Shown: positions 3,279 through 62,548, counted from the stretch's first letter. The stretch: DNA of 64,000 bases from Chiloscyllium plagiosum (GCF_004010195.1 NC_057723.1:15832355-15896354), one strand, 5' to 3'. Notes: generated by a model from the letters alone, not told the origin. Made by a program: numbers and translations.

Positions 3279-3374
3279 ACACAAAAACAGAAGTTGCTGG
3301 AAAGGCTAAGCAGGTCTGGCAGTATCTGTGATAAGAAATCAGTGTTAATGTTTTGGGTCCAGTGACCCTTCCTT
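3279..3374 (-). mobile_element. Short PLE-derived insertion (family B) with 12-bp TSD
   Basis: TSD aattcaattatg (3267-3278) / aattcagttatg (3375-3386); body matches the arm at 5792-5887; decayed hammerhead stem GGGTC-ACTG-GACCC on the minus strand. Confidence 0.75.
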
Positions 3375-3588
3375 AATTCAGTTATGGTGTCTTTTGGGAG
3401 ATACTTTGTGGCTGATTACGCTCAATATTATTAAGCACTATACGTTCAAACATAGTTGAGTTGCAAGATTCTTGTACCATCCAAAATCTCATGGAGAAGG
3501 ACATTTGTAAATTGTAGTTGAGCAGGTATTGGTGCTCAAGGTGCTTAGAAGGGATTTTTGCAGTAATATAGTACTGTAGGGTAAATGG

Positions 3589-3730
3589 AAACAGTGAGGA
3601 CTGCAGAGGAGATAAGAGTCAAGAGTGTTGTGCTGGAGAATCCTGATGAAGGGCTTATGCCCGAAGTGTCAATTCTACTGCTCTGCGGATGCTGCCTGAC
3701 CTGCTGTGCTTTTCCAGCACTACACTCTTA
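3589..3730. mobile_element. Fold-back PLE mini-insertion (family A) with 16-bp TSD
   Basis: TSD actgtagggtaaatgg (3573-3588) / actgtaggataaatgg (3731-3746); inverted arms; CTGATGA-A-GGGC-TTAT-GCCC-GAAG from 3643. Confidence 0.85.
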
Positions 3731-3959
3731 ACTGTAGGATAAATGGGTTTGTTTGGAATTCAAAGAAGACAATGGAACAATGGCCCTCAATTTTCAATTT
3801 TTATGCAGTACACAAACATATTTCTATTCTATAGTAAAACTTAGAACTTTCATGGCATGGCCTGTGAATAGAAACAGTTTGAATCCTTGCCAGTGCTCTT
3901 GGTCTGTAAGGTGTCAGCTGTGGCTCAGTTAGGAACACTCTCAGATTTGAATCATGATA

Positions 3960-4270
3960 TGGAGGTGCTGGTGTTCAACTGGGGTGGACAAAAATCACAC
4001 AACAGCAGGTTATAGTCCTACAGGTTTATTTGGAAGTAACAAACTTTCAGAACACTGCTCGTTGATCAGGTAACTAGTGGGGCAGGATCATAAGACACAG
4101 AATGTAAAGAAAAAGATCACAGTGTCATGCAATTAAAACAATATATTGAACAAACCTAGATTGCTGTTAAGTCTTTCATCTTTTAGAGTGGGTTACAGGT
4201 TTTGGTTCATTAATATGTAAATCCCAGAACTTCTTTTCAGTCACATTCTTGAGATAACTTAAAGTTTTAT
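3960..4270 (-). mobile_element. PLE-like terminal fragment (family E), interrupting a tRNA-like SINE head at ~3912-3958
   Basis: Same sequence as 9998-10341, 38998-39184 and 52274-52409 (ggaggtgctggtgtt...ccaggttatagtccaacagg). Confidence 0.6.
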
Positions 4271-4453: not shown

Positions 4454-4770
4454 TAATAAGTAAAAGCAGAAAAGCAGAGAAACTCAGCAGGTTTGGAAGA
4501 TCTGGCAGATCTGTGGAGTGAAAAAACAGTGAACATTTCAAGTCTCTTATGACTTACCGAGTTTTAAGAAGATTTGTACCTCAGGTTGAGGATCTAGATG
4601 GAGGTTTGCTCAGCCAGCAAATCTCTCATGACTTCCTCAGAACCCTGAATTCAAGCTGTTAACTCTGTTTCTCTCTTAACAGATGCTGTGAGATCTGCAG
4701 AGTTTTTCCTGCACATTCTGTTTTTACTTCAGGTTTCCAGCAACTGCAGCATTTTACTTGTATTTGAGGT
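4454..4770. mobile_element. Old fold-back PLE-like insertion with 11-bp TSD
   Basis: TSD tagatttacaa (4443-4453 / 4771-4781); decayed inverted arms; 3' end resembles ...ccagcatctgcag. Confidence 0.6.
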
Positions 4771-5791: not shown

Positions 5792-6032
5792 CAAAAACAG
5801 AAATTGCTGGAAAAGCTCAGCAGGTCTGGCAGTATCTGTGAAGAGAAATCAGAGTTAACGTTTCGGGTCCGGTGACCCTTCATCAGGACTGGCATCTCCA
5901 AGAAAGGTCACCAGACCTGAAATGTTAATTCTGCTTTCTCCTTACAGTTGTTGCCAGACCTGTTGAGCTTTTCCAGCAATTTCTGTTTTAGTTTCTGATT
6001 TATAGCATCCACAGTTCTTTCTGCTTTTATAA
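5792..6032. mobile_element. Fold-back PLE mini-element (family B) with perfect 12-bp TSD
   Basis: TSD aataaacagcaa (5780-5791 / 6033-6044); arms ~5792-5880 and ~5900-5990 are reverse complements. Confidence 0.85.
5855..5887 (-). ncRNA. Minimal type I hammerhead ribozyme motif
   Basis: Minus strand reads CUGAUGA-A-GGGUC-ACCG-GACCC-GAAAC-GUU-AA; intact core and perfect stem II. Confidence 0.7.
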
Positions 6033-7047: not shown

Positions 7048-7373
7048 GAGGTAAAAACTACCACAGCCACATTTGCTTCCAGCTCAGCACTGTCCCCATG
7101 ACTTGTCCGGACTTGTCCTACCTGCCTATCTCTTTTTCCACCTATCCACTCCACCCTCTCCTCCCTGACCTATCACCTTCATCCCCTCCCCCACTCACCT
7201 ATTGTACTCTATGCTACTTTCTCCCCACCCCCACCCTCCTCTAGCTTATCTCTCCACGCTTCAGGCTCTCTGCCTTTATTCCTGATGAAGGGCTTTTGCC
7301 CGAAACTTCGATTTCGCAGCTCCTTGGATGCTGCCTGAACTGCTGTGCTCTTCCAGCACCACTAATCCAGAAT
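7048..7373 (+). mobile_element. PLE 3' fragment (family A) with hammerhead motif and 14-bp TSD
   Basis: TSD ctatttttggatat (7034-7047 / 7374-7387); C-rich 3' UTR; CTGATGA-A-GGGC-TTTT-GCCC-GAAAC at 7282-7306; begins with a short inverted stub gaggtaaaaac. Confidence 0.85.
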
Positions 7374-8846: not shown

Positions 8847-8969
8847 AAGGGCTTTTGCCCGAAACATTGATTTTCCTGCTCCTCGGATGCTGCCTGAACC
8901 GCTGTGCTTCTCCAGCACCACTCTAATCCAGAATCTGGTTTCCAGCATCTGCAGTCCTTGATTTTACCT
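8847..8969 (+). mobile_element. PLE 3' terminal fragment (family A)
   Basis: gggcttttgcccgaaac...ccagcatctgcagtcc, matching the other copies; no clear TSD. Confidence 0.75.
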
Positions 8970-9985: not shown

Positions 9986-9997
9986 GTGTTTTTAATT

Positions 9998-10341
9998 TGG
10001 AGGTGCTGGTGTTGGACTGGGGTGTACAAAGTTAAAATTCACACAACACCAGGTTATAGTCCAATAGGTTTAATTGGAAGCACTAGTTTTTGGAGTGCTG
10101 CTCCTTCATCAGGTAGTTGTGGAGTCACGATTGTAAGACACAGAATTTATAGCAAAGGTTTACAATGTGATGTAACTGAAATTATACATTGAAAAATACT
10201 TTGATTGTTTGTTAAGTCTCTCATCTATTAGAATGACCATGTTAGTTTCATTTCTTTCATACGTGTATCACAAAACCTTTTTTAAAAGTTACATTCTCAA
10301 GTGAACTTTAACAATTAGTGCTCAAGTGAACTTTAACAATT
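9998..10341 (-). mobile_element. PLE-like terminal fragment (family E)
   Basis: Minus strand cctgatgaaggagcagcactccaaaaactag at ~10082-10113 is a decayed hammerhead; 21-bp tandem duplication at 10296-10341. Confidence 0.65.
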
Positions 10342-10344
10342 GTT

Positions 10345-10950
10345 AAATTAAGAATGTGGACATAAGTATTTTAAAGGTTGAGAGGGACAGAGAAGTATAA
10401 GGTCAAGGACCATAAACAGGGTAGACAAAATGCAGCTGTTCCCCTGAGTCAAATACAAGGGAACATAATTTTGGAGTGAAAGGTAGGAAGTTGAGACGGA
10501 ATTTGAGGAAAATATTTTTCTTCCAGAGGATGGTGGGGGTCTGGAATCACGGCCTGGGAGAGTTGCTAAAGAGGGTAACCTCACAACCATTCGAAAACAC
10601 TTGGATGAGCACTTGAAGTGTCATAATATTCAAAGTTATGGACCTTGCGTGGGAAAGTAGAACTACTGTAGGCAACAATGTATATTTGGCAAAAATGAGT
10701 ACTGCAGCTGCTGGAGATTAGAGTCAAGAGTGTGGTGCTGGAAAAGCACAGCAGGTCAGGCAGCATCCAAGGAGCAAGAAGGTCGACAAATAATTCCTGA
10801 TGAAGGGCTTTTGCCTGAAACATCAATTTTCCTGCTTCTCGGATGCTGCCTGACCTGCTGTGTTTTTCCAGCACCACACTCTTAACACCAATGTGTATTT
10901 GACAGCACAGACTTGATAGACTAAAGGCCCACTTCTGTACTGCGTGATTG
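10345..10950 (+). mobile_element. CR1 3' fragment interrupted by a PLE
   Basis: FFxQRxVGVWNxxP-type CR1 C-terminus and 3' UTR, continuing after 10901. Confidence 0.7.
10689..10888. mobile_element. Fold-back PLE mini-element (family A) with 13-bp TSD
   Basis: TSD caatgtatatttg (10676-10688) / caatgtgtatttg (10889-10901); CTGATGA core at 10797. Confidence 0.85.
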
Positions 10951-11172: not shown

Positions 11173-11819
11173 AGGCAAAACTGAGGACTGCAGATGCTGG
11201 AAACCAGAGTTTAGATCAGAGTGGTACTGGAAAAGCATAGCAGGTCAGGCAGTATCCGAGAAGCAGGAAAATTGACGTTTTGGGCAAAAGCCCTTCATCA
11301 GGAATAGAGTCAAATCAACCTTACTGCCCCATGGCCCAACATTTCAACTCTGCCTCCCACTCTGCTGAGGACATGCAGGTCTTGGGCCTCCTCCACCCCC
11401 GCTCCCTCATCACCCGATACCTGGAGGAAGAACACCTCATCTTCCACTTCAGAACACTTCAACCTCAGGGCATCAATGTAGACGTCCCCAGTTTCCTCAT
11501 TTCCCCTCCCCCCACCTTGCCCCAGATCCAACCTTCCAGCTCAGCACTGTCCCCATGACCCGTCCTACCTGCCAACCTCCCTTCCCACCTATCCACTCCT
11601 CCCTCCCCTCTGACCTATCACCTCCATACCCACCCCCATTCTTTGCTACCTTCTCCCCAGCGCCCCCTCCCCCGCCCATTTATCATTTATCTCTCCACCC
11701 TGGAGGCTTCCTGCCTCTATTCCAGATGAAGGGCTTTTGCCCGATCCGTCGATTTTCCCCAGTTCCTCGGATGCTGCCTGACCTGCTGTGCTTTTCCAGC
11801 ATCACACTGATCTAAATTC
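11173..11819. mobile_element. PLE with inverted terminal arms, GIY-YIG C-terminal relic and perfect 14-bp TSD
   Basis: TSD tagatgttgatttt (11159-11172 / 11820-11833); + strand AQHFNSASHSAEDMQVLGL...RYLEEEHLIFHFRTLQPQGINVD is typical of the PLE endonuclease C-terminus. Confidence 0.9.
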
Positions 11820-14045: not shown

Positions 14046-14291
14046 TTGATTAAATAATGCTATTATTTAAATGAAAGACTTACTCATTATTGTCTTCTGT
14101 CCTCTAGCTCTTTTCTCCCATTTGAGGGAAACATCTTTTCATCTCAAGTTCCTCAGGATCTTGTACAACCCTCATTCTTCTGAACTCCTATCAGTATAGG
14201 AGAAAGTGAGGTCTGCAGATGCTGGAGATCAAAGCTGAAAATGTGTTGCTGGAAAAGCGCAGCAGGTCAGGCAGCATCCAGGGAACAGGAG

Positions 14292-14327
14292 AATCGACGT
14301 TTCGGGCATAAGCCCTTCTTCAGGAAT
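14292..14327 (-). ncRNA. Minimal type I hammerhead ribozyme motif
   Basis: Reverse-complement copy of 14840-14875. Confidence 0.7.
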
Positions 14328-14589
14328 GAGGAAAGTTTGTCCAGCAGGCTAAGATAAAAGGTAGGGAGGAGGGACTTGGGGGAGGGGCGTCGGAAATGTG
14401 ATAGGTGGAAAGAGGTCAAGGTGAGGGTGATAGGTCAGACTGGGGTGGGGGCGGAGAGGTCGGGAAGAAGATTGCAGGTTAGGAAGGCGGTGCTGAATTC
14501 GATGGATTTGACTGAGACAAGGTGGGGGGAGGGGAAATGAGGAAACTGGTGAAACCCGAGTTCATCCCTTGTGGTTGGAGAGTTCCTAG

Positions 14590-14714
14590 NNNNNNNNNNN
14601 NNNNNNNNNNNNNNNNNNNNNNNNNNNNNNNNNNNNNNNNNNNNNNNNNNNNNNNNNNNNNNNNNNNNNNNNNNNNNNNNNNNNNNNNNNNNNNNNNNNN
14701 NNNNNNNNNNNNNN
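14590..14714. other. Assembly gap (N run)
   Basis: Run of Ns. Confidence 1.
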
Positions 14715-14839
14715 GCCCCCACCCCAGTCTGACCTATCACCCTCACCTTGACCTCTTTCCACCTATCACATTTCCGACGCCCCTCCCCCAAGTCCCTCCT
14801 CCCTACCTTTTATCTTAGCCTGCTGGACAAACTTTCCTC

Positions 14840-14875
14840 ATTCCTGAAGAAGGGCTTATGCCCGAAACGTCGATT
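14840..14875 (+). ncRNA. Minimal type I hammerhead ribozyme motif
   Basis: AUUC-CUGAAGA-A-GGGC-UUAU-GCCC-GAAAC-GUC-GAUU. Confidence 0.72.
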
Positions 14876-17874
14876 CTCCTGTTCCCTGGATGCTGCCTGA
14901 CCTGATGCGCTTTTCCAGCAACACATTTTCAGCTCCTATCAGTATAGGCCCAGTCTGTCCATTGTTTCTCATTAGAAAACCCTCTGGAATAGTAAAACAT
15001 CCCACTTTTATATTCTATAAATGACAACACTAACCTTCTTATTCATTTCCTGTACCTACATGCTAACCTCCAGTGATTTATATACTAGGACCCTAGCTTC
15101 CTCCATATCTCAAGTTCTGCAATTTCTCTCCATTTATATCATATGCTGCTTTTCTGCCACTTACACATTTACCCACATTACATTCCAACTGCTAATGTTT
15201 TTCCCTTTCACTTAATCTATCTATATCCCATTGCAGATTCCATATATCCTAAACTTTGTGTGACCAGCAAATTTAGCAGTCATACCTTTGATCCCATCCC
15301 CAAAATAATTGAGATAAATTGTGAAAAGTTGAGGCACCAGTACTGATCCATTTGGCATTCCATTCATTTTATCTTGCCAAACTGACAATGGCTTGTTTAT
15401 GCCTACTGTTCCTTGATAATCAGTTCTGAATCCAAGCTAACCCTCCACCACAAATTATTATTCTGTGAAGTGATTGTTGTTTAAGAGTTCATATTGGAGA
15501 CTGCACTAAGGTCCACCCAATCCGATGTCATACTGCATGGTTGGGAATAAGGCAGAACATTTTTAGATCCCATGGTTCGTTGACCATTTTTATTCATTTC
15601 GTGAGATGGTGGTATCACTGGCTATGCCCATTGTTCATTGCCTGAGAGCAGGCATTGGTGAACTGCCTTCTAGAACTGCCGCTGACATAGGTTTGTAGGG
15701 AACTCCTCAGTAGTGTTAGGGAGGATGTTACAGGATTTTGATCTGGTAACCACAAAAGGAGGCAAATGCAGTTCTAAGCTAGGATGGTGTGTAGCTTGAG
15801 GGGAGCTTGCAGGTACTGCATGCAGCTGCTGCCCTTGTCCTTCTAAGTGGTCAAGGCTTCCATCTTGGCCAGCTGACCCCAAACACTCAAGATACACTCA
15901 TAGGCAGTGAATACTCACACAACATGTCTGTGGAGGTTGGCATCAACATAGGCCATCCTCACCACATCATGGCACAGCTCTGACCCATATAAGATATAGT
16001 TAGCCACTTCAATACTGCTGTGACACCTAGCTGCTGCAAGGCTCCTTGGCGTGGAGGGATAGACACCCATCATGTGGATTGGAGCCACTCAGGGCTTTTT
16101 GCTTCTCTTTTTGAGGTTACTCATTTTGTGCCTACTAGGATGTTCATAGCAGCTCTGCCTTGCTTTGTATTTCTTTTCTAAGCTTTTGCATTGCCTGCTT
16201 TAGAATTTATAAACTCACAGTACTTCTGTTTTGACTTGTCTTTTAGCACAGACAGATAATCAGGCAACTAGTCATGCTAGTTAACAATAATCAATCAATG
16301 GGGTGGACATGTTGCTGCATGACATTGTGCTACATCAATGTCACATCGATGACAACTTTCACAGCAAACACCAGCATGTCTTTCAGCCAATAACACCCAT
16401 GAACTTCTATGAGGAAAGGTCCATGATCTGGTCAAGGGCGGGGGCTGCTGTCATCAGTCAGTGCAATGTCGGATCTATTTGGGGGTTGGACATGGTTATC
16501 TGACTGCTTAGGGGCAGTCAGGTGTTCAATATCATTACAGTGGAGAGTCAGCCACATTCATTCTTGCACATCCAGGGCAACAAATCTGAAGATTATCATT
16601 ATCAGCTGGAGAGAGGCACAAGCTCCACATTTCAATTAAAAATGAAAATGGCTACCATCACTCTCAGAATAGGTGGAATAAGTAGTGGTGTCTATTTGAT
16701 CATATGAGTTCTACATGAAAGTGATGTCAGGCCCTTCAAGGGGCAATTACATTAATCATACATTTACACAGTTCAAGTTAAAGATATCCATCTTCATAAA
16801 ATTCCACATAAAACATATGCACTGACCATTCTGAGTCACCTCAGTGAATCAGAAGTTACAACACATGACCTTTAAAAGTGTTACCTGTGGACCACAATTC
16901 ACAAAGGCAACCTGAAGTTTAATAGGCTGCACAAGGGCACAGAGCTCATTTGTTCTCACCTTGACCTATGTGCAGTGAAATGCAATGTTGTTTTTCTTAG
17001 GTGATGTAGGTAGTTGGAGTTCAGAGCATGGTTTTGGGAAATGAACCACATTTAAAACCTTCAAGATGGCTTGTGCTGTTGTGGAATATGGTCCATTTTG
17101 TCAGCTGTCCGTGTGGAATAATATCATGGCCCTCCTTGTTGGAATCATCAACATCCAGCTAAACCGTCATGTGAATGTTTGATGTGAATTCTGACTGCTC
17201 ACACTTACAAGAACCTGGTCTGTTTATGACCTTTCCCACACAGAAATATTGGCACTGTGGCCAAGGGTTCCAGCCACAGGGGCTGCAGTACAATAAAGGC
17301 ATAGGAAAATGGAAGAACAACAAATTTATTAGCATACCCTGGACTCAGCTTCCAAACAGCCTCTGCATGAAGTAGCAGCTCAATTTGATTTGAATTTTTT
17401 GGGGGGCACAGATTCCATGTCTTTCCCTCAGCATCTTTCTTCCTCACTAGAATATGTCTTTTCTGAGCGTTCAGAAATATTTCCTCATACCTTCCAATCA
17501 CAATGCTATCCTAGACTAAACTAAATGTCACGACATGTTGCATTAATAGAAGATAGTTGCATTGCAAAAACCCATCTCAGCGAAAAGGTTTGCAGGTGCT
17601 TTTCAACACTGAAATGGCAATTACATGGTTATATTCAATGGCCAAGGATGCACAACAGAGAAAATCTCGAATTACACAATGTACCATGAATATCAACAAT
17701 ACTCTTCCACTCAAGTGACCTGGTAGATGGCTCATAAAACTATGTAGAACAAGACATGAATATTGGCATAATAGCACAGGGGTTATTTACACAAGAAAGA
17801 AAGTTGTAATGGGAAATTTTAGGAAGAATATAAGAAGGATACAAATGGATTTGTGTGGGATGAAAGCAGGCAGT

Positions 17875-20340: not shown

Positions 20341-20530
20341 TGGCTCATTTTGTGATAGTATCATGATTTTTGCCCATGTCCAACCTGAATTTCACGATAA
20401 CCGTAGTCATAAATATCAGCTTGCTGAAATGTAAGATCTGAATCACCTATATCCCTCAGAAAAAAAAAGTTGTATCTTTTGTTGAAGATTATTCTACCAC
20501 ATTAATCTCTTTGTGTGGAAAGATATTTAA

Positions 20531-20668
20531 TTCTGAGAAAGGGTCACTCAACCTGAAGCATTAACTCTGATTTTTCTGCACAGATGCTGCCAGACCTACT
20601 GAGCTTTTCCAGCAATTTTTGTTTTGTGTTTCTGATTTACAGCATCTGCAATTCTTTAAGTTTTCATT
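20531..20668 (+). mobile_element. PLE 3' fragment (family B), decayed hammerhead
   Basis: ttctgagaaagggtcactcaacctgaag...gatttacagcatctgca matches the right arm of 5792-6032. Confidence 0.7.
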
Positions 20669-21016
20669 AAATTTCTTGCTTTTCTGAAGCTATGTTCTAC
20701 ATCTGTACATTTTCTGAAAGTGACCTATTATGTGACAGGTAAAGCATTTATTTTATATAGTTGGTCACTGCCTGTGCCTGTGTTTATTTACTTTACAACC
20801 CACACGAGGGCCTTTAATATCTCATACTTGAGCTCCTGGCTGGATTGGTTTCTCACTTGTCATTTGCGATGATGTATTTTGGGAATTGAATAGACTCTGC
20901 TGATTTCATGTAGCAATGGTAATCTCCTGATGTCATGGTATTTTCAGTTAACTAGTACTCCAGAGAGATAATGCTCTGATGTCCTAGGTTTAAATCCTAT
21001 CATGACTGATGGTACA

Positions 21017-27149: not shown

Positions 27150-27347
27150 GGAAAATTGGAAATTGCTGAAAATACTCAGCAGGTCAAGCAGCATCTGTGG
27201 AAAGAAAGCAGAATTAACATTTCAGATGCTGGACTCGAAACATTAACTCTGTTTTCTCTCCACAAATACTGTCTGACCTCCTGAGATTTTCCAGCAATTT
27301 CCAATTTTATTTCCAATTTCCAGCATCTGCAGTTCTTTGGTTTTTAG
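27150..27347. mobile_element. Fold-back PLE mini-element
   Basis: TSD tcttgagaa (27141-27149 / 27348-27356); arms aaaattggaaattgctg...cagcaatttccaatttt. Confidence 0.75.
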
Positions 27348-33149: not shown

Positions 33150-34900
33150 CATGTCTGGGGTACTAGTTGCGGTTCAAAGTTGATTTTAACAACCTGCTCA
33201 ATGTCTTCAGCTGAGCTGGTGTGAATGGTTGTCACAGGGAAAGGCTCTCTCAGTGTTGAAACTCTATGCATGTGCAATGGTCTGAACAGAATGGCCACAG
33301 TCACAACTCAAACATTTCCTCATGTTCCAATTGTGGAACAAATAGCCACAGCTTCACCCATCGGTCTTCATATGCTGTTCAGATTATCAATAGAAGGTTT
33401 AAACTTTTATCATTCATGTCAGTTATTAGGTCAACCAGGAGGTGCGCCATCAAGAGGGCTGACTGTCAGCTGTTTGTTAGGTATGATGTGTGTTCCAGTA
33501 ATGTCAATGAAATTTCGGTTAATGACATGTAATTATTTGACATCATTGTTAGTCTTTTATTGGCTGTCAGCTGGTGATGTTCTTTTGAGAAGGAAGTTAT
33601 CCCTGTAGACATTAGAAGGTTCAACATGTGTGAGCACAGGAAGTCATTTGAGTTGTTTTGCTCTGAACATCATAGAAATAATTTGTATGATTTCCAAGTT
33701 GGCATCTACCACATTTGTGTGGTGATCCATGTGCAATTTATCTCTTGCTAGATAGAACAGGGTGACCAAAGCAGTGTGTAATGTGTTGGCTCTGTTCTCC
33801 CTAATGATAACAATCAGTTTCTGTCTGAGATTTTTTTCTTGACCTTGGTTGTGATATTCTGAGGTTTTAACACTTGATCAATGTGCACTCAAGACTGATG
33901 CCAAAGTATTTTGTCACTGGTTGCGGGTGAATGGTCTGCCACAGAATTGGACATAAGATAACAGTATTGAAAGTGTTGATGTTTAGGCTGCATTAAACTC
34001 CATCCAATCTGGTATCTCTCAGTCTTTATGTAGAGAAGAAACAGGAGAAAGTGAGGACTGCAGATACTGGAGATCAGAGCTGAAAATGTGTTGCTGGAAA
34101 AGCGCAGCAGGTCAGGTAGCATCCAAGGAGCAGGAGAATCGACTTTTCAGGCATGGGCCCTTCTTCAGGAAGCCCTTCTTTCCTGAAGAAGGGCTCATGC
34201 CCGAAACGTCGATTCTCTTGCTCCTTGGATGCTGCCTGACCTGTTATGCTTTTCCAGCAACATATTTTCAGTAGAGAAGAAACAGTCTCATACAAGGTCC
34301 TAGTAGAGACAGATATGTCACTTCTGGCTCTTGATATTCTTTATAATTATGCCTAGTCAGTAAAACCTGTGTCTATTGCTATCATGCAATAAACTACATC
34401 TTGAGTAAGTCAAGTGTCTATTCACAATAGTGACTCATCCTCTGCCTCACTAATTATTCGGGCAACCTCACTAATGCCTGGAGCATGTAAATCCTTAAAG
34501 GTGAGTTCTGTTAGAAGTATGGTACACATAACACACTCCAGGCCAATGACAAGTTAGCAGTGTTTACTATGCCAACATTTGATAGATATTAAGTTCTTCT
34601 CTGGCCTTCAAGTTGTTCAACTGGCTGATCAAATTTTCCATTTTCTGAAGTAGGCCTCTAGAGAACCTAAATCTGCAGTGAGTATTCTGTCAGTGTCCAG
34701 AAACTCTTTAGCCTGGAACGCAATGGTCAAATCATCAACATGTGCAATGAGTTGTGACTTTGTGGAAGGGAGGTCACTAGTTCATATGGTGAAGAGAACT
34801 AGTGTGGAGATTGATCCCTTTTGGCTTTCTAAGATGTACATGGGACTGTCAGTTGCTGATCACAGTGCCAATTATTTATAGGGTTTTCACACGATATTTG
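33150..34900 (-). mobile_element. Highly decayed Vingi/ingi-like non-LTR retrotransposon
   Basis: Collinear minus-strand motifs: GSxxxxVLFTI..SDLP...AHVDDLTI...LTADLGSLEAYFRKWK (~34820-34635), LNNLKAREELNI, LTFKD, GWS..SVADHSP, LPVLTHVEP, CDCGHSVQTIAH (~33305-33270). Confidence 0.65.
34045..34270. mobile_element. Fold-back PLE mini-element with perfect 15-bp TSD
   Basis: TSD gtagagaagaaacag (34030-34044 / 34271-34285); arms meet at two opposed hammerhead motifs, the + strand copy at 34180-34214 being intact. Confidence 0.92.
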
Positions 34901-38772: not shown

Positions 38773-38997
38773 AACTTAGAAGCAGGCTTTGGGGCAGAGG
38801 GAATTGAGGAAAAATTGGGGAGGGCCAGGATGAATTTCTGTAACTAGATCAAGTGCCTACCCTGCACAAACCAGACAGCCAATTGATAAACTGAACTTAG
38901 GTCCTCTTTAAGGGCCATTTTGTGCATGAAGTGATATTTTTGTGCTGTCAAAGCCATCGCCTCTCCCCCCACCCCAACCCCCTCAATCATATGTGAC

Positions 38998-39184
38998 GTG
39001 GAGGTGCCGATGTTGGACTGGGGCGGACAAAGTCAGAAGTCACACAATGCCAGGTTATAGTTCAACAGGTTTATTTGAAATCACAAGCTTTCGAGCACTA
39101 CTCCGTCACATATGATTGAACTCCGAACGAGTGAGCAGTGCTCCGAAAGCTTGTGACCATTACCTGGTGTTGTGTAACCTCTGA
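38998..39184. mobile_element. Fold-back family E element with ~14-bp TSD
   Basis: TSD ctcaatcatatgtg (38982-38995) / ctcaattatgtgtg (39185-39198); GAGC-AGT-GCTC-CGAAAGCTT at ~39134-39152. Confidence 0.8.
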
Positions 39185-41025: not shown

Positions 41026-44000
41026 CAAAATGACAGTAGGACAAGAGTCAACTCAATCTTGTGAATCAGGTTTCCAGTAATGTCATAAAAAATCTATCTG
41101 GTGAATTAAGGTGTTGTGACACACTGTATCAACGTTCTGACAGCCCATATAATATTGCTCTGTGATGAGATAATCATATTATTGCATACTGTGGTTTGAC
41201 AGTGTAGATATTATCTACTTAATGATACACTGTTAAAATTGAACACATTACTTATGCATCAGTAGCTGCTATAGCTAAGCTTTTCTGTTGCAAATTGTTT
41301 AGTTAAAGCAGGACACTTGTCCCTTATTGTTGGTGGAATGTGTCAATTCCTACTGGCTTCTCCATGACAGCTCTATTCATGCACAATCTTTTGACATTCT
41401 CCCTCTGGCATTTTCTCAGCAACTGCCAAATGTGACTGAAATCCTGCAGCTATGGGCTTAGCCAAGCTGTGCTGCTCCAAATGAAGACAAATCCCTGTTA
41501 TGTGGAAATTAATAATTTGGTACAAGGCGTACTGCTACAGTTTAATTTTAGCTTAGTATAATTTGCTGTAAGTATTCATTGTCATTCTCAAATGGCAAGG
41601 ACCGTGATGAGTGCTTGTAAGTGCTGATTAAAAAAGGAAGTTGAGAGATCAGGACAGTTTAAAGATAATGGGGAAGCAAGGTTACAAAGATTGCATTGAT
41701 TGCTCAGGGACAGGAAGCACCCTGGGATGGTACCAATGCAACCTACATGGGATCCTTCAAGTACATTAATGACAAATACAAAATAGACCGTGCAGGTAGT
41801 GACTTGAGGTTCTGCCTTTCCAAGGATTAAAGATACATCGCTGTGACAATATTAAAACTGAAACTATGCAAGCTAATTACTTGCCGATGATATCATTACA
41901 CAGAATGATAAAGAGAAGAAATATGGTATAGATATTTGAACTGAGGGGCACTTAAAGAAAGGCAGAGAAGAAGGAAGACGTGCCAACGGTCCCACGAAGG
42001 TGAAGGTAACAACAAATGAATGACAAGCAAAGTAGGATAGCTCACTTAGCTGCCCTGACTATTTTCTGAAACAAACAATTAGTTCCAAATACTTTATTAA
42101 AATAAACTACGAAAACCATAATAACATGAAAACTAGAACCGGTCATTAAGGGATCTGAGAAAATTAGATTATTATAAGTGGCAGAAAAGTTGGAGATAAT
42201 TTAACTTTTGAATTAGAAGTTAACTGGAAGATATTTATATTTGCAAACCAGGTCTTTGGGTGAGGAAGCTAAAATTGTTGACCCAGGACATTTTTAATCT
42301 CAGAAAACAGAAGTTGTTGTTGAAACTCAGCAGGTCTGGTAGTATCTACAGAGTGACCCTGTTTCAAATCTGCAGCATCCACAGCTGTTTGTTTGTACCT
42401 GTATTTCTTTTAAAATTGACTTTCAAGACAAATAAGGATGCAAGCGTAACTCTACCTGAAGGTATTTGACAAAAGTTCTTTACAACATTTTGACAAGCAA
42501 GTAGCCCATTACTTAAAGGGTTCAACTCACCATTGGCCAGCAAATCTTGTACATCGACAATAGAAAGAACCAAAAGAGCTTAATAAATTATCACACAACA
42601 GACTGCATTTGTTTAATTTTAGCTGAATATAGTTTACTGTAATTACCTACGACCATTCTCAAATGGCAAGTGCAATGGTGAGTGTTTCGCTTTGGAAACG
42701 GTCTATACTGGAGCTAAGAGATGGAAAACTGTTAAACAAGCCATCGAAGTAATGGGGTATTTACATAAACCTGCAATATTTGACAGGGCTTTGATTTAAT
42801 GACTCATGTAAAAGATGACAGCCGCAGCTCAATATTGCACTGATGTGTCAGTCTCTGTGGCAGGCTCTGCCTAGCAAGTTGATGGTTTGTTCCATGGTGG
42901 TCAGCTTTCTGTTAAGCATCACCTGGCGTGACTCAGCAGTCCCACTCTGGCATGGCAGTCTTTGTTGCATCTGCTGCAGAGGAAGATATTGGACTGGGAA
43001 GGTGTAGGATTCTCTGGTAATACCAGCATCAAACAGTGACCTGTTTGACCCCAATTCAGCTCTTAAAAGACTCTGGATTTGCCTGTTATCACTGACTGAA
43101 CCCATTCTGTTGTACTGTGGTGTGTCAGCACCTGAATAGTCAGGGGCTTCCCGACTTGAGTTAGGCAGTGGCTCACGTGATCCCTCCTACTATCACAGAC
43201 AGCCCATAGCATCTGTTCTATGCGACTTTCAACTTGAGTTTAACACTCGAGACTGCAGTCCCCTGTGTTATATTAATGCTCTCCGGGGGAAAAACCTGGA
43301 AAAAGTGTATGGAGATTCATGACTACCAAAAAAGTCAGGGACCCCCTCTGAACCTCTAAGTTGAATTTGGAGGAAGCAAGCCATTGTGTTTGGTGCAGGT
43401 TAGTTGCAGATGTTCCTGGAAAAATTACCTCATTAGCCATCCACTTGACTTTGCACTCCAGTCCTGTTTCTTTGTCAGCATTTATTTCTTTAGCCTTCAC
43501 CTCTCCTGAAGTATTCACAAGCCAGGAGAGTTATTTGATCATAGCTGGGATTTGGATACATGAACAACAGCAGGCTGCTCAATGTATGCCTGAAGGTCAA
43601 ACCACTTCCAAGTTCGTGTTAAACTTTGGCCTGAGACTGTGAGGAACTCAGGCGTGTCATCATAAGGAAATATGACTGAGACATGTTGATGGAAAGTTTA
43701 TGTACTGACAGCGAGAGACATACACATTAGGCACTTTACTTCACATTTCTATGAAGCAGTGGTGTCATCTGAAAATGAGAAACAAACCAATATTCAAAAG
43801 CAGAAAGCAGTCTTTGTCTCTTCACTCATACATAAGACAAGGCGTTAGCCTGTTGGATGCATTATTTCAACTGACACTATAGCATCTTTAATCAAGTATT
43901 CCAGGTAAGAAAGAAGGATCTGTTTTTAAAAAAAATCTTTATTTTTGTTGGGAGAATTTTCATCAAATTCATTTTCAATAAACGATTTCATAGATCTTAA

Positions 44001-44420: not shown

Positions 44421-44595
44421 CTCCTCCCTACCTTTTATCTTCTCCTGCTGAACACTCTCTGCTCATTCCTGAAGAAGGGCCTGTGCCCGAAACGTCGAAT
44501 CTCCTGTTCCCTGGATGCTGCCTGACCTGCTGTGCTGTTCCAGCAATAAAGTTTCAACTTTGATCTCCAGCATCTGCAGACCTCACTTTCTCCTC
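44421..44595 (+). mobile_element. PLE 3' terminal fragment (family A)
   Basis: ctcctccctaccttttatc...ctgcagacctcactttctcc, the same 3' terminus as the 14201 element. Confidence 0.9.
44465..44500 (+). ncRNA. Minimal type I hammerhead ribozyme motif, best formed in the window
   Basis: Stem I AUUC/GAAU, core CUGAAGA, stem II GGGC-CUGU-GCCC, GAAAC-GUC. Confidence 0.75.
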
Positions 44596-48950: not shown

Positions 48951-48953
48951 TGT

Positions 48954-49933: not shown

Positions 49934-50081
49934 AAATGTGTTGCTGGAAAAGCGCAGGAGGAGAAGGGCTCATGCCTGAAACGTCGATTCTCCTGCTCCT
50001 TGGATGCTGCCTGACCTGCTGCGCTTTTCCAGCAACACATTTTCAGCTCTGATCTCCAGCATCTGCAGTCCTCACTTTCTC
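49934..50081. mobile_element. Fold-back PLE mini-element with 15-bp TSD
   Basis: TSD catgtagttagatgg (49919-49933) / catgtagtaagatgg (50082-50096). Confidence 0.88.
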
Positions 50082-50989: not shown

Positions 50990-51770
50990 GGATGTGGACA
51001 TTACTGGCTGGGCCAACATTTTGTGCCCATCCCTAATTGCTCTAGGTAGGTAGGGGTGGTGAGCTTCCTCCTTGAGCTGCAGCTTTTGGTCTGTATGGAC
51101 ACTTAAAGTATTGTCAGGAAGAGATTTTGACCCAGCAACAATAAAGTGGTGACAGATGGCTAAGTCAGGATGGCATATGGTTTGGAGGAGAACTTGTGGG
51201 CAGTGATGTTCTCATGCATCTGCTCCTCTTGTACTTTAAAGTAATAGCAGTCATGGGTTTGGAAGATGCTGTAAGTGAAGCCTTGGTGGGTTGTGGCAGT
51301 GAGTGGTACATAATGCTGCCACTGTGTGCTGGTGATGAAGGGAGAGAATGTTGGAGATGGTGGATGGGGTTTCAGTCAAGTGGCAGAAGTGGGTACTGCA
51401 GATGCTGGAGATCAGAGTCAAGATTAGAGTGGTGCTGGAAAAGCACAGCAGGTCACGCAGCTTCCGAGGAGCAGGAAAATCGACATTTCGGGCAAAAGTC
51501 CTTCATCAGGGATCCTGATTTTCCTGCACCTTGGATGCTGCCTGACCTGCTGTGCTTTTCCAGCACCACTCTAATCTTGACCCTGTCAGTCAAGTGCACT
51601 GTTTTGTCCTGGATGTTGTCAAATGTCTTGAGTATTGCAGGGGCTGCAATCATCCATGCAAATGGAGAGTACTCCAACAGGTTCCTGACTTTGTGAATTG
51701 TGGACAGGCATTGGCGGGACAAGAGATGAATTACCCGCTGTAGACCTCCTCGAGTCTGACCTGCTTTTTG
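50990..51770 (-). mobile_element. Old CR1/L2-type LINE 3' fragment interrupted by a PLE
   Basis: LSTIHKVRNLLEYSPFAWMIAAPAILKTFDNIQDK. Confidence 0.75.
51383..51585. mobile_element. Fold-back PLE mini-element with 11-bp TSD
   Basis: TSD tcagtcaagtg (51372-51382 / 51586-51596). Confidence 0.85.
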
Positions 51771-52273: not shown

Positions 52274-52409
52274 TAAAAATCACACAACACCAGGTTATAG
52301 TCCAACAGGTTTATTTGGAAGCACTAGCTTTCGGAGTGTTGGACTATAACCTGGTGTTGGGTGATTTTTAACTTTGTCCACCCCAGTCCAACACTGACAT
52401 CTCCAAGTT
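52274..52409. mobile_element. Fold-back family E element with 14-bp TSD
   Basis: TSD atacagaactgagt (52260-52273) / atacagaattgagt (52410-52423); ~37-bp inverted arms. Confidence 0.85.
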
Positions 52410-52714
52410 ATACAGAATTGAGTAAGCAAAGAGTGACCGCTCAGCTTGGTGGATATTGTGGCAATCAAGTAGGCTCCTTTGGCCATCTTCCCAAGTCACA
52501 GCTTCCATAAACATGAGCTGATCGAAAACTCTGTTGCCCACATCCTAACTCTCACCTGATCATGCTTGTCCAGTACCACCATTCTTGATGACCTACGTTG
52601 GCTCCACTACTCCCTTATTCAGGAACCTCCTCCAGCCCCTGCCCCTGGATCCTCTGAGACATCCAGCACTGGTGAAGATGGGGAAGTAAATTAGTGCAGA
52701 GGCCAGAATCTGTA

Positions 52715-52908
52715 CTGAGAACAAAAAATCCTGGAAATCACAGCGGGTCAGACAGCATTCATGGAGAGAGAGCAAGCTAATGGTTTGAGTCTAGTTGAGT
52801 CTTCAGCAGAACTCTGATGCAGAGTCATTTAGACTGGAAATGTTAGCTTGCTGTCTCTCTACAGATGCTGCTTGACCAGCTGTGATTTCCAGCATTTTTT
52901 GTTCTCAC
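52715..52908. mobile_element. Palindromic PLE-like element (family D)
   Basis: tgagaacaaaaaat...attttttgttctca arms of ~95 bp; central ctgatgcagagtc-attta-gactggaaa is a decayed hammerhead. Confidence 0.7.
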
Positions 52909-53522: not shown

Positions 53523-53820
53523 GGCATGGTGGCTCAGTGGTTCACTGCTGCCTCACAGGCCCAGGGTCCCAGGTTCGATTCCAACCTCGGGTGACTGTCT
53601 GTGTGGAGTTTGCACACTCTCCTGTGTCTGTATGAGTTTCCTCCGGGTGCTCCGGTTTCCTCCCACAGTCCAAAGATGTGCAGGTTAGGTGAATTGGTCT
53701 TGCTAAATTGCCCATAGTGTTAAGTGCATCATTCAAGGGGAAATGGGTCTGGGTAGGTTGTGTGTCGGTGTGGACTGGTTGGGCCGAAGGGCCTGTTTCC
53801 ACACTGTGGGGAGTCTAATC
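53523..53820 (+). mobile_element. HE1-type V-SINE inserted in a CR1 3' UTR (~53240-53890)
   Basis: Host cagccatgatc|atattgaatgg is split by the SINE. Confidence 0.9.
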
Positions 53821-54618
53821 ATATTGAATGGTGGAGCAGGCTGAAAGGGCCAGATGGCCTTATTCTGCTCCTTACATCAATGTTTCTATGAGCAATCTGA
53901 ACAAGATGAATGTGATGATAGTGGCCTCACTCCACCTGGTCAATCTCGATTAAATCTGTAACCCAGCCTTGAATGTACACAGTTGTCTGATTCCACTGCT
54001 CTGAGGGCTGAGGAGTTCCAGAGGTTTATAACTTCCTATGAAATCCCTTTTCATCTTATCTGAAATCGTACAGCTCCTTTTTTTCCCAGTCCTGATCTCA
54101 GTACCCAGTGAACTGAAAGCCACTTCTTCCACAACCAACTTTGAACCACATATTGAATTCCCTTGCCTTCTCTGCCCGATATCAGCTTACCTGTGGCTCA
54201 GATAGTAATCCAGCGATCACTGTTTTTGTGATTCTGCTTTTTGTCTCATGGGTTCACTATACCTGGACAGAATCTTTAATGAAGGCATCTAACATTGAAC
54301 CCACTACCCACTTTCCTTCTCAAAGCTCTGTAACTCCATTTGTTTCAAATATTTACCCACATTTCCAGTGAAGTGGCAAATTATTTAACCATGGTCACTT
54401 TTTCGCAAGCAAAGAAATAATTTCTCTGTTTTCACATTATTAATTTGCTACATCATTTCAAAAACATGCTATTACATTTACATATCTCTGCTTCAGTAAG
54501 GAATATCTCAACCTCTCCTGGAACAATAGCAACTCAGCATTGTTTCGCCTTGCAGAGTTAGCATGGTACTCTGTCCATTACTTTCATTCCCTTCCCCAAA
54601 ATTTATTCCTGATGAATG

Positions 54619-56875: not shown

Positions 56876-57229
56876 AAGGTTAGCGAGTCTTGGTGTCTGG
56901 TGCAGAAGCCCTCCGCTGATCTGCTGCAGTGTAATATTTATTTGAAGTTTTTACCTGCTTCTAATGTCAATCCTTTAATGAGGTCTTATTTCTAACTCAT
57001 TTTTCAAACACCGTAAAGTAATGCCGCTACTTTTTATTCCTCTTTCTTAACCATGATTTGTACCTGAGATGGTGCCATAAGAGGCGGATTTGTAAAAGCT
57101 TTACTCTGTATCCCTGTATGTCTATAATGGAATACACCTGACAATAAAGAATATTATTTTTTATTCTATTAGAAAATTCCAATGTACAAAGGAACCTGCC
57201 TGACTTCATCAATAAGTCACAGAAGTCTA

Positions 57230-58042: not shown

Positions 58043-58701
58043 AAGAGAAAGTAAGGACTGCAGATGCTGGAGATCAGAGCTGAAAAATGTGTTGCTCGAA
58101 AAGTGCAGCAGGTCAGGCAGCATCAAAGGAGAAGGAGAATCGATGTTTCGGGCATAAGCCCTTCTTCAGGAATGAGGAGGGTGTGCCAAGCAGGCTAAGA
58201 TAAAAGGTAGGGAGGAGGGACTTGGGGGAGGGGCGTTGGCAATGCGATAGGTGGAAGGAGGTCAAGGTGAGGGTCATAGGCCGGAGAGGGGATGGGGGCA
58301 TAGAGGTCGGGAAGAAGATTGCAGGTCAAGAAGGCGGTGCTGAGTCCGAGGGTTGGGACTGAGATAAGTGTCCCAGAGGTGTTCTCTGAAATGTTCCGCA
58401 AGTAGGCGGCCTGTCTCCCCAATGTATAGGAGGCCACATTGGGTGCAGCGGATGCAGTAAATGTGTGTGCAGGTGCAGGTGAATTTGTGACGGATATGGA
58501 AGGATCCCTTAGAAGGAGGGAAGTGAGGGGGGAGGTGTGGGCGCACGTTTTGCATTTCTTGCGGTTGCAGGGGAAGGTGCCGAGAGTGGAGGTTGGGTTG
58601 GTGGAGGGTGTGGACCTGACGAGTGAGTCGCGGAGGGAGTGGTCTTTCTGGAACACTGATAGGGGAGGAGAGGGAAATATATCCTTGGTGGTGGGGTCTG
58701 T
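58043..58701 (-). mobile_element. PLE fragment with Cys-rich linker and GIY-YIG endonuclease relic (Neptune-like), 12-bp TSD
   Basis: TSD ttgccagtgaca (58031-58042 / 58702-58713); GTFPCNRKKCKTC and FTC...IYCIRCTQCGLLYIGETGRLLAEHFREH; hammerhead motif 58138-58173 (minus). Confidence 0.92.
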
Positions 58702-61649
58702 TTGCCAGTGACAGGTGGGTTTACTGTAAAATGACTTGTTAATTGTATTCCTAAGATATTAATGGTGCAATCGTAGCTTTTGTGACAGATTACAAAATAA
58801 TGCAACTTATTATCCAGTTCCAAAAACAACTACATTGAAATCACAACTGGCTCTTTTTTTAATTGTACGATTTTCACCAAACTAATTTTCCCTTAACCAT
58901 TAACAGAAATACAATGGTCTTGGAATGTTTTGCAATTCCTTCTCATGTAATCAAGGGACCGATAAACACGCTTTTAAATAAGAAATCCTGAAATAGCCAA
59001 CTAATTAAAAGATATCTTCAGTTGCAACAACAATTGTGATAATCACAAGTCATAACTTTCCACTGTCAAACCAGAACAAATTATGTAAACTTATAAATTA
59101 GAGATGCTGTTGCTTTTTAAAGTTTTTTTTGCTGGAAGTGTTGTGAGTATTTTGGACAAACTGTATGCTATCAATTGTGGTAGAGCTGGTCCTGTCACTG
59201 GTTGGTACAATCTGTGCTGTTTGGATGTTAAACATATCAGAAACATTCTGATCTAAGCAGGCATTGAGCCCACTCGTTAGGCCATTGCTTGAACATGACT
59301 TCATTTGAGTCCTGTTGAATAACCCCTCTACAAAATGCTAAACTCTTCATCAGACACTGTGGATATGTGTCCAAGGTAAGTCTTAAAGACAAGCTTTCAG
59401 TGAAGCAGGAAGGAACTGGAGTGCTCTGTAATTGCCCCAGTAAATCTAAAGCTCTTGTAATTGCTATTCCTTCTACTGGCCCCATTATTGACCACTTCAA
59501 CCCCTCGCATCCCTCCACACCCCTTCACCCCACTCCCACCCTCACCGCCACCCAACACTTGTCTGAAGCCTCCATTGGCAATGGAGCTGACTGGAAAATG
59601 ATTCTTCTCAATGGTCAAGTACCCTATGGGAATACGAGTGACATTGATAGCCCACCCTGAGTATCTAGATGAAGCCCAAATTCCAACTCTTGTCAATCCT
59701 AATATCTGTTAAATTGAGCGGCAGCCTATCCAGCACTGAGTTTCACTTCAAAGTAGAATGATGATTATATCTGCATTTTATGAATTGTCCCTTATTTTGA
59801 TTGTTTGCCCGGTGTGTCTTAAATGACATCTTTTGTCCCTTATTTCTAGGACAGCCTGGGAGAAAGCCATTTCACTTTCTTTGGGAAAATGTGCAGAATT
59901 GTGTCATGAGAGTGTCACCAGAGAGTGTCATGAAACACTAAGGCCCCACCCACCTTTTTATTATTACCTTATTGCCCAAGTTGCAACAGATCCCTGTCCT
60001 TTACCAACACTCTGTCTCATTCATATAGTCACCCATCAACACAACCCCACACCCCTTTTCCCCTGTCCTAATAATTAACCAACAGCAACACATGCAACAG
60101 ATAGCCCCCACTTTGCCCCCACCCCAACCCGCCAGGGTCTCCTACTCCTGTTTTTCTGATTGCTCAACAGTTACTCCACACCTCTCTTAACTCCACAACA
60201 GTACTCTCCACTCAGTCTTTACCACACTGATGGTTACCTTGCTGCAACAAACATCTCCCTAACCATTATGGTCACCCACTACCCTCTGCTCATGTAGTCA
60301 CTAACACTCCAGCTGATCCCATAGTTGGAATCTTGTTAAGAGTCCAACTGATGATAATACTGACAAGATAGATCCCAGAGTGAATCTGGTTTAATAGATC
60401 ACTAATTTTATTTTTCTCTTTGATTACCATGGAGACCAATTATTGAAGATATCCAGAAGTGGCTGTCAATGTATTTTAAATTAATCATAAAAGAAAAAGA
60501 AAAATAACATAAGCTATATTACATTACATAATTGTTATTGGAATGTTATCATTCCAAACATCAGAAAGAATTGATTATTCCTGATACTCTAGCAACATCC
60601 TTCCAAACATTTAAAGCTCAGTGAATAGTTACTACCATCTTCATGTTCAAGCTTCTTGTTCAGCTGACGTGATTCTAATCATTTTCTTCATGGCAAATTT
60701 CTGTGCATTTACTGGGTGTTGCTTTCTTCAGTTAATGTCTTCCCTTGAAATCTTCAACAGTCTTGTATAATGTCTTCATCTCTGACACAATCCTCAGCTT
60801 TCTGATTTTGGAGGTTACTTCTTGGATTTCTAAACATCTCGGGACTTCAACCCAGGCCCTGACTTGTTGGCATCTGCTAAGTAACTGCACCTCTACTGTG
60901 ATGGACATCTTTCCCCTTCATGAACTGCATCAGCTTTTCCTCTCTTTCTGCATGTTGTAAAACTTGAGTGCAGCAGTCATATCGGACTCAAAATGTGAAC
61001 ATGTTTCTCACTTCACAGATACTATCAGACCTTGTGAGTTTCTCCTCCATGTTCTGTAGTGATTGTAATGAGATCAGCCAACTGTTAATCTGGTCCAATC
61101 AGGGAGATTGGCTGATGCAAAAGGTTGAATGGTAGGGATAGTGAGCCCCTGAATGTCTGACTCAGTGACAGGCAGGGCTTGTGTCAAAAAGTGTGGCGCT
61201 GGAAAAGCACAGCACATCAGGCAGCATCTGAGGAGCAGAAGAATCGACATTTTGGGCATAAGTAGGGTTATTGTCAAAGGCTATGCACTTGTATATAGAG
61301 GGTGATTGGTGATGGGATGCCAGTCTCTGAAGAATTATTTCACTTACCATTTTTGTTTCAGATTTCCAGAGCTGCAGTATTTTGCTTTTATTAGCAATTA
61401 TCTCCCTAGTTGGTTTGCCAGTCATTTAAGCTGAAATCACATGACTTCTTATGAATGTGGTTTTAAACTCAATTTTTAAAATGACTTTCTGACCATTCAG
61501 AACTTTATAGAGCTGAAAAACTGAAACCTATTTCCCCTCCACATTTGCATTCAAGTTCTCAAAGAATAACAATGACATATTATGAATCTCTATAACAATT
61601 TCCATAATTTTATTTCACAGGAGCTAGTAATTCTACTTCACTCCCTGGC

Positions 61650-62105
61650 CAGGCCAAAGCAGCCTGTTTGATTTGCATCCACATCCACCACTTTCAATAT
61701 TACCTGTTTCTACTAAGAGTTAACGTTGAGTGGTACAGAGCAGAACTGTGAACCATCGACAATATGCACTATAGCACTTCATCAAGACTTCTCCGACAGC
61801 ACCTTCCAAATCCATGAACTCTACCACTGAGAAGGACAAGGGCAGTGGATTTAAGAGAAAACCACTGCCTGCAGGTTTCCCTACCAGCAACATACCAACC
61901 TGACTTGCAACTATGTGTCTGTTCCTTCACTGTCATTGGGTTAAAATACTGGAACACTCTTTCTTATGGAACTGAGAGTGACCCGACAACAAATGAAATG
62001 CAGCAGTTCAAGAAGGAAGATCACCACCATCCTCGCCAGGGCAATTATAGATTGGCAATAAAAGTTAGTCTAGCCAATGAAGTCCACAATGCATAAGCAA
62101 ATAAA
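61650..62105 (+). mobile_element. Old CR1/L2-type LINE 3' end
   Basis: aaagcagcctgtttgat...gttccttcactgtc...ggcaataaa tail. Confidence 0.7.
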
Positions 62106-62417
62106 AGATACTAGATATCCAACACACATGGAAATAGTTCAATGTGACTTTACTTTTCTTTATTTCTTTGTCAGCTGAGTAACTGCTACTTTCTGAACTC
62201 ATGTTTGCGTTGAGGAACAAATTGAAGTGAGCTTAATCTTTGAAATCCTCACAAACCCAATCTTTCCAATCTGAGCTCAAGTTCTCATGCATGATCTTGC
62301 ACAATGAGCCGTGGAGACTTTCAATCTCTCAGCTCTTTCTTGCTGACCATCCATCTCCATGAGGTTCAGTAATACCTCAGAAAATCACTCTCTAAACCAA
62401 TCCTATAATAGAGTCTA

Positions 62418-62548
62418 GATTAGAGTGGTGCTGGAAAACCACAGCAGGTCAGGCAGCATCCGAGGAGCAGGAAAATCGACATTTCGGGCAAAAGCCCTTC
62501 ATCAGGAATAGAGGCAGGGTCCGGTTTCTGCAGTCCTTGTTTTTATCT
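62418..62548. mobile_element. PLE mini-insertion with ~19-bp TSD
   Basis: aatcctataatagagtcta (62399-62417) / aatcctacaatggagtcta (62549-62567); hammerhead motif 62474-62509 (minus). Confidence 0.85.

Follow-up and report, generated by a model that had tools for sequence, protein, structure and literature searches.

Short fold-back ends of Penelope-like elements, many within target-site duplications, in a 64-kb window of the Chiloscyllium plagiosum genome

Insertions of endonuclease-positive Penelope-like elements (PLEs) bear a known signature. In Adineta vaga, the element Pen2a has an inverted pseudo long terminal repeat (pLTR), with a 31-bp tail on one arm and target-site duplications (TSDs) of 8–10 bp (PMC3846280), and an inverted 5'-truncated copy with a 30–40-bp tail is given as the general scheme of all endonuclease-positive PLE clades (PMC8557442). 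Here we describe short insertions of this kind in 64,000 nt of Chiloscyllium plagiosum DNA (the window), to which all our counts refer. These stubs show the shortest form of the known PLE insertion signature, and they are dense; the feature is real, and mostly ordinary. They can be read as short hammerhead-bearing insertions of PLE ends, in which the fold-back was probably made at each insertion, both nicked target strands priming reverse transcription, one at the element terminus and the other about 36 nt inward.

Several described systems bear on this reading. Penelope of D. virilis has a 34-bp repeat and variable inverted termini (PMC2377424). The purified PLE protein of Poseidon, from Anolis carolinensis, cuts and extends both target strands in vitro, prefers AT-rich sites and uses two reverse transcriptase (RT) start sites, the interval between them being the 30–40-bp tail; these sites lie 111–118 nt into the open reading frame (ORF), close behind the hammerhead (PMC11167929). 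Minimal hammerheads on opposite strands, 100–700 bp apart, are reported in Schistosoma (PMC4209133), and non-LTR retrozymes consist of tandem head-to-tail arrays of hammerhead monomers (bioRxiv 10.64898/2026.07.22.740005). For the whale shark, Penelope long interspersed elements (LINEs) are listed without detail in the part of PMC8455134 available.

Loci, target-site duplications and arm anatomy

Self-comparison of the window gave numerous short matches, direct and inverted. A BLAST search seeded with 13 real copies returned 24 clusters, which were curated by dropping 36250 (15 bp, E 0.026), splitting 52271-52907 in two and trimming 61011-61389 to 61187-61262. The resulting 24 PLE-end loci make up 5,985 bp, that is 9.4% of the window or one locus per 2.7 kb. 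A first-pass annotation had reported dense short insertions with TSDs, and all 13 coordinates that it named are among the 16 loci found to be TSD-bounded; its rate of one palindrome per 3 kb was too high, the count being 15 in 64 kb, about one per 4.3 kb. The family names A (with subfamilies A1, A2 and A3), B, C and D are labels coined in this analysis. Family B shows 69–78% similarity to A in short stretches of the self-comparison, and B, C and D were assigned to PLE ends through their tail geometry, their TSDs, the B-A similarity and their hammerhead-like cores. In the list below, a tailed arm reaches the element terminus, a tail-less arm starts inside it by the offset given in nt, and a dot stands where no strand is assigned.

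3279..3374 (-): family B single tail-less arm, ends in hammerhead core; 12-bp TSD (1 mismatch)
3589..3730 (.): family A3 fold-back, tailed about 52 nt left, tail-less about 90 nt right; 16-bp TSD (1 mismatch)
3955..4265 (-): family C single long arm of at least 310 nt; TSD not found
4454..4770 (.): old, degraded family-B-like fold-back, tail-less arm left (offset 31); 11-bp TSD
5792..6028 (.): family B fold-back, tail-less left (offset 37), tailed right; 12–16-bp TSD; strict hammerhead ending at 5886 (-)
7048..7373 (.): family A1, 12-nt putative terminal stub left (by eye), tail-less arm of about 315 nt right; 14-bp perfect TSD
8847..8969 (+): family A1 single tailed arm, starts inside hammerhead core; no edge TSD
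9995..10311 (-): family C single long arm, degenerate hammerhead-like core; TSD not found
10689..10888 (.): family A3 fold-back, tailed about 99 nt left, tail-less about 96 nt right; 13-bp TSD (1 mismatch)
11173..11819 (.): family A1 fold-back, tailed 138 nt, tail-less about 509 nt; end of GIY-YIG region at 11301-11531 (+) on tail-less arm; 14-bp perfect TSD
14201..14932 (.): family A2 fold-back, arms 99.5% identical over 218 nt, central N-run; coding remnant 14512-14589 (-); 16-bp perfect TSD
20520..20672 (+): family B single tailed arm, starts at hammerhead 5' edge; no edge TSD
27150..27347 (.): family B fold-back, both arms end in hammerhead stem II; 9-bp TSD
34045..34270 (.): family A2 fold-back, both arms end about 3 nt upstream of hammerhead core, 8–9 nt re-copied centrally; 15-bp perfect TSD; folds as a single long hairpin (z -22)
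38996..39184 (.): family C fold-back, inverted copy of own left target at centre; 14-bp TSD (2 mismatches)
42301..42347 (-): weak family-B fragment (E 2e-4); no TSD
44421..44595 (+): family A2-like single tailed arm (175 bp) between the copies, 43551-44420 and 44596-45466, of an 870-bp direct duplication
49934..50081 (.): family A2 fold-back, tail-less 28 nt left (offset 39), tailed 120 nt right; 15-bp TSD (1 mismatch)
51383..51585 (.): family A1 fold-back in older repeat, tail-less arm ends at predicted hammerhead cut site; 11-bp perfect TSD
52274..52409 (.): family C fold-back, tail-less left (offset 38), tailed right; 14-bp TSD (1 mismatch)
52716..52907 (.): family D (B-related) palindrome, equal outer ends, both arms end at hammerhead 5' edge; no TSD called
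58043..58701 (-): family A2 single tailed arm, 5'-truncated, internally deleted; remnants of zinc-finger-like linker and GIY-YIG, 58376-58710; 12-bp perfect TSD
61187..61262 (-): family A3 single tail-less arm, ends in hammerhead stem II; no edge TSD
62418..62548 (.): family A1, tail-less about 100 nt left (offset 41), terminal stub of about 25 nt right; 19-bp TSD (2 mismatches)

TSDs were sought by ungapped comparison of the flanks, with 1,500 random loci of equal geometry as the null. A score of at least 11 was reached at 12 of the 24 loci, versus 0.47% of random loci. The loci at 3279, 10689, 27150 and 38996 score 8–10, which alone is within chance (null frequencies of 35% at 8 or more, 13% at 9 or more and 3.5% at 10 or more); in each of them the best repeat adjoins both element edges. 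Counted together, 16 of 24 loci are TSD-bounded, with lengths of 9–19 bp (11–19 in 15 of the 16). Composition of the TSDs is 67% AT versus 59% for the window, in agreement with the AT preference reported in PMC11167929. At 8847 and at 20520 a 12-mer repeat lies 1.4 kb away; as the gap holds no element sequence, it was put down to chance.

The insert at 51383 sits in an older repeat, of which two paralogous copies (near 19963 and 61692) carry the target once. Anchor spacing is 30 and 31 nt in the paralogues; the filled site gives 244 in its present state and 30 with a single count of the TSD. All 16 TSD loci were screened for paralogous empty sites, and 51383 was the only one with both flanks in one repeat and matching spacing. 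Microhomology between the TSD end and the element at the tail-less start was 0–3 nt in 14 cases, giving no clear signal, a weak result because TSD boundaries absorb such overlap.

The 175-bp piece at 44421-44595 is exactly adjoined at both ends by the 870-bp direct duplication (43551-45466, 845 of 870 positions identical). This could be a giant TSD-like duplication reflecting a far second-strand nick, or a tandem duplication in which the piece was captured at the junction.

Arm anatomy was established by reading the inserts inward from both TSDs and aligning them to real long arms. Two head-to-head arms are present in 14 of the 16 TSD-bounded inserts, those at 58043 (a lone tailed arm) and 3279 being one-armed. 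In 14 of 14 two-armed copies the tail-less arm begins 29–41 nt (median 36) inside the terminus, and in 13 of them the partner arm aligns from the terminus itself (offset -9 to +2); for the fourteenth, at 7048, the script gave no alignment and the tailed side is a 12-nt stub read by eye. This pairing of a tailed with a tail-less arm is present in families A, B and C. Judged from sequence, the outer offset of 29–41 nt is the published PLE tail.

The inner junction, or centre, is different in every copy. Among the A2 palindromes at 14201, 34045 and 49934, whose arms are 92–97% alike between copies, both centres and arm lengths differ, and the A3 palindromes at 3589 and 10689 likewise have differing junctions and arm lengths. 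Identical arm breakpoints, the sign of a MITE (miniature inverted-repeat transposable element), were looked for throughout the window, and no two copies share a centre. A centre unique to each copy means that the stubs are not a fixed MITE, and the differing centres of same-subfamily copies support the earlier proposal that the palindromes are built afresh at each integration. That proposal also had the second arm cut at a variable point, which holds for the inner junction and fails for the outer end, near-fixed as it is.

In all seven family-A palindromes tested, the partner arm ranks 1–4 among 14–19 arms, and a diagnostic segment adjacent to the tail is common to both; the two arms of each tested copy thus belong to one subfamily. 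The tail-less arm reaches further than the tailed arm in six copies (7048, 62418, 11173, 3589, 10689 and 52274), and therefore neither arm is a plain copy of the other.

Extra sequence stands at two of the centres. Within 38996-39184, about 15 nt at the centre are the reverse complement of the insert's own left target plus the junction, which is typical of a templated insert of the end-joining kind. In the 34045 palindrome, 8–9 central nt (34172-34180) duplicate part of its own arm, which suggests slippage before joining.

Coding relatives and hammerhead motifs

A 70-aa piece at 58510-58719 had seven matching proteins among 59 candidates. The top homologue, P0001 from Rhincodon typus, is 73% identical, and the set includes P0007 from Chiloscyllium punctatum. 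P0001 contains RVT_1 (E 9e-5, below the cut-off), then GIY-YIG (23.2 bits, above the cut-off), with a CX4CX2C linker between them. When compared with the window by tblastn, it matched 58376-58710 (E 7e-34), 11301-11531 (E 9e-20) and 14512-14589 (E 1e-6); a weak Pfam match to GIY-YIG was also obtained at 58274-58717 on the minus strand (E 0.016, below the cut-off). The CX4CX2C motif is found in the 58043 insert as it is in P0001. An 85-aa piece at 11301-11555 had no homologue among 33 candidates. GIY-YIG coding remnants are confined to family A, and the window contains no RT sequence, RVT_1 being known from the homologue P0001 only. Widening the search brought in 546 relatives (E up to 0.001), some of them 827–883 aa long with the CX4CX2C linker. 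By these protein matches the host is likely a carpet shark or a relative of one. A CX2-5CxxC linker before GIY-YIG is the mark of the Neptune and Nematis clades (PMC8557442). The matches to P0001, with its RT, CX4CX2C and GIY-YIG, bear out for family A the PLE origin proposed at first pass, and support its homology to an RT + GIY-YIG parent of Neptune type, by a linker that is also shared with Nematis.

Hammerhead motifs had been claimed as well, and were recovered. The core pattern of family A has 12 matches in the window versus none in 100 shuffles. A strict descriptor of the minimal hammerhead (CUGANGA, stem II of at least 4 bp, GAAA, paired 15.2-16.2, UH) has six, five in family A and one in family B, versus a null mean of 0.05. 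Each of the six carries an additional base ahead of stem II, a trait reported for PLE minimal hammerheads (PMC4209133). By pattern match, then, minimal hammerheads are present in the stubs; the cores of family C are degenerate. An Rfam scan returned no hammerhead and 14 sub-threshold matches to microRNA-type hairpins, none at gathering score, from which we infer that the Rfam models miss the minimal form.

Many arms stop close to this motif. With inner-end positions read by hand from alignments, with the 42-nt interval picked after seeing them, and with the degraded arms (4454 left, 4454 right and 42301) excluded, 23 of 36 arms stop between -28 and +14 of hammerhead C3, a stretch reaching from the cut site to slightly upstream of the core, and most of these ends are at the hammerhead 5' edge. 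Geometric truncation of any mean would place at most 18% of arms in this interval (P 1e-9); for family A alone the count is 12 of 22 (P 1e-4). Self-cleavage was considered as the source of the inner ends and rejected. An exact stop at the cut site occurs in one of the 36 arms (51383), and a stop 3 nt past it in one (10689); most arms stop at or just beyond the 5' side of the core, and self-cleavage is therefore not what sets the ends.

Possible origin of the fold-backs

If both target strands prime reverse transcription, the insertions could be formed as follows. Endonuclease nicks staggered 9–19 bp apart would supply two primers; one strand would start at the outer site, giving the tailed arm, and the other at the inner site, giving the tail-less arm. 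Both cDNAs would be antisense, usually short, and would frequently stop at the hammerhead 5' edge, which is probably where the template RNA starts or where the enzyme comes off. Host end-joining would then fuse the two cDNA ends head to head, at times with small templated inserts, and such end-to-end joining by host repair would account for those at 34045 and 38996. Arm ends pile up at the hammerhead 5' edge, likely because a transcript beginning in the pLTR has its 5' end there. On such a transcript, priming at the 5'-proximal pLTR would run off after about 100–140 nt, and priming at the 3' pLTR would give the longer arms, those that include coding sequence. Penelope of D. virilis reportedly has a promoter within its pLTR, with a start further upstream, ahead of an intron (PMC2377424). 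Alternatively, the pile-up could come from stalling or from an end-joining bias at the ribozyme. The stubs would be dead-on-arrival by-products of autonomous elements and no separately replicating family.

A stricter proposal is that, on one template, each of the two strands must be primed at a start site of its own, and that the cDNAs run off an RNA whose 5' end lies just upstream of the hammerhead rather than at the cut site. We hold it tentatively, and lean slightly against it. If it is true, the transcript start could be located from DNA alone, and the tail and the inverted pLTR would come from one mechanism; the shark genome would also have a hairpin about every 4 kb, a possible feed for double-stranded-RNA silencing.

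Part of the evidence weighs against priming on both target strands, or against the details just given. The ungapped flank search found no TSD at 8 of the 24 loci, and a terminus-anchored search to 3 kb found none at element edges, except for the 870-bp duplication at 44421. The rule of tailed and tail-less pairing is not universal: the palindrome at 52716 has equal outer ends on both sides and no called TSD, and at 3279 a tail-less arm stands alone within a TSD. Arm identity within most palindromes is 78–86% (the values for 3589, 38996 and 49934, which are alignment artefacts, being excluded), yet the TSD copies are often perfect, for which ascertainment may be the cause. An assembly effect may explain why the 14201 arms are nearly identical, the centre being an N-run, and asymmetric arms could be mimicked by later central deletions. 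For families B, C and D, no tblastn match with 157 proteins lies nearby. The hand reading, the interval chosen afterwards and the excluded arms count against the clustering of inner ends, and the transcript start near the hammerhead, though likely, is read from DNA arm ends, not from RNA. Finally, no strand difference in start site was observed in vitro (PMC11167929), and this does not itself predict the pairing of a tailed with a tail-less arm; that paper leaves later steps of PLE integration unvalidated.

Rather than two primed strands, a single cDNA (or antisense template) might fold back and self-prime the inverted arm, the asymmetry arising from later deletion at an unstable centre. For head-to-head PLE palindromes, self-priming on an antisense template has been put forward (PMC3846280). 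The near-symmetric centres at 34045, 38996, 27150 and 52716, some of them within hammerhead stem II, would suit such a snap-back, as would the fact that both arms are invariably of one subfamily. We consider it unlikely, however: in six copies the tail-less arm extends well beyond the tailed one (e.g. about 315 versus 12, about 100 versus about 25 and about 509 versus 138 nt), and in the same six the tailed arm holds sequence that is absent from the tail-less arm, so that snap-back would need a separate one-sided later deletion in each. It is less probable still that the stubs were copied from a short non-autonomous RNA starting at the hammerhead, of solo-pLTR, short interspersed element (SINE)-like or retrozyme-like kind, and mobilised in trans. 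Such an RNA would explain why arm ends cluster at the hammerhead 5' edge, and non-LTR retrozymes are reported as derived from PLE pLTRs (bioRxiv 10.64898/2026.07.22.740005), but the same subfamilies also have arms of 300–650 nt that enter coding sequence (7048, 11173, 14201 and 58043). A retrozyme-like source is further opposed by the window self-comparison, which contains no tandem arrays of the stub unit; units are dispersed, single or head-to-head only.

A MITE has a fixed internal structure, terminal inverted repeats reaching both ends and a fixed TSD length. The stubs resemble one in their short length, inverted arms and high density, and yet copying of a fixed palindromic MITE or SINE as a unit appears very improbable. 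No two copies have a common centre, even at 92–97% arm identity, TSD length ranges from 9 to 19 bp, the arms are offset by the tail and hence form no terminal inverted repeats, and arms enter the coding sequence of an RT element. Within the window, the unique centres, the tail offset and the spread of TSD lengths refute the fixed unit.

Other repeats were seen in the window. A 2.3-kb tandem array at 54616-56879, with a unit of about 26 nt and multiples of it, contains long spurious open frames. A 247-bp direct duplication (28939-29185 and 29967-30212) is 95% identical. A dispersed repeat of about 300 bp, 79–93% alike between copies, occurs at 37003-37312, 40738-41030, 48957-49267 and 53522-53820; our guess, by its size, is that it is SINE-like. 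Open frames at 22245-23543, 31658-32509 and 63133-63938 resemble fragments of CR1-type LINE reverse transcriptase, as recognised by eye alone.

Comparison with described systems

In LINE-1 twin priming, the second target strand primes internally on the RNA, so that one TSD encloses a segment in inverted orientation; the two segments come from neighbouring parts of the RNA that do not overlap, and their site is variable. This geometry suits the inserts at 7048 and 62418, whose tailed arm stops inside the tail. Elsewhere the shark stubs depart from it, with a nearly constant second start and arms that mostly overlap and so form a palindrome.

Hammerheads of the stubs have the form known from metazoan PLEs, with the same CUGANGA and GAAA boxes, the extra base before stem II, a short stem I and palindromic 15.2-16.2 (PMC4209133). 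The motifs described there are mostly solo, from truncated PLEs, with some opposite-strand pairs as in the shark stubs; the available part of that paper has no analysis of TSDs, of the tail or of ends clustering at the ribozyme, and no shark example. Retrozymes are tandem (bioRxiv 10.64898/2026.07.22.740005), whereas the shark stubs are dispersed, single or head-to-head. In our literature search, neither shark PLE stubs nor a clustering of ends at the hammerhead turned up in any paper; these families may be in Dfam, Repbase, supplements or subscription journals, which lay outside that search.

Poseidon of Anolis carolinensis is alike in having two RT starts that bound the tail, AT-rich targets and a pLTR hammerhead (PMC11167929). 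It differs in belonging to another clade than Neptune, and in showing no difference between strands in vitro, in contrast to the tailed and tail-less pairs here; the available part of that paper does not deal with inner junctions.

The closest likeness is to the complex insertions of endonuclease-positive PLEs, with which the stubs share the head-to-head inverted copy, the tail on one arm (31 bp there, 29–41 here), the TSD, the 5' truncation and the variable arm length. Compared with canonical PLE insertions, most shark units are just two ends (130–240 bp) with no ORF between; compared with A. vaga, the TSDs are longer (9–19 versus 8–10 bp), and the shark window has one locus per 2.7 kb. The first-pass annotation had suggested a new hairpin-generating system, a claim that is not supported, as the inverted pLTR and tail within TSDs were already described (PMC3846280, PMC8557442), as were the tail as the interval between two RT start sites (PMC11167929) and the opposite-strand pairs of minimal hammerheads (PMC4209133). 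The architecture being known, the stubs are of value for statistics and annotation rather than as a new system. Two points keep their interest, the strict pairing of tailed with tail-less arms and the pile-up of ends at the hammerhead edge. The origin of PLE inverted ends and tail is as yet understood only in part, and a genome with such dense, short, TSD-bounded copies would permit statistics at scale: start-site pairing, TSD lengths and inner ends could all be counted, a cheap test of the dimer, two-strand priming model.

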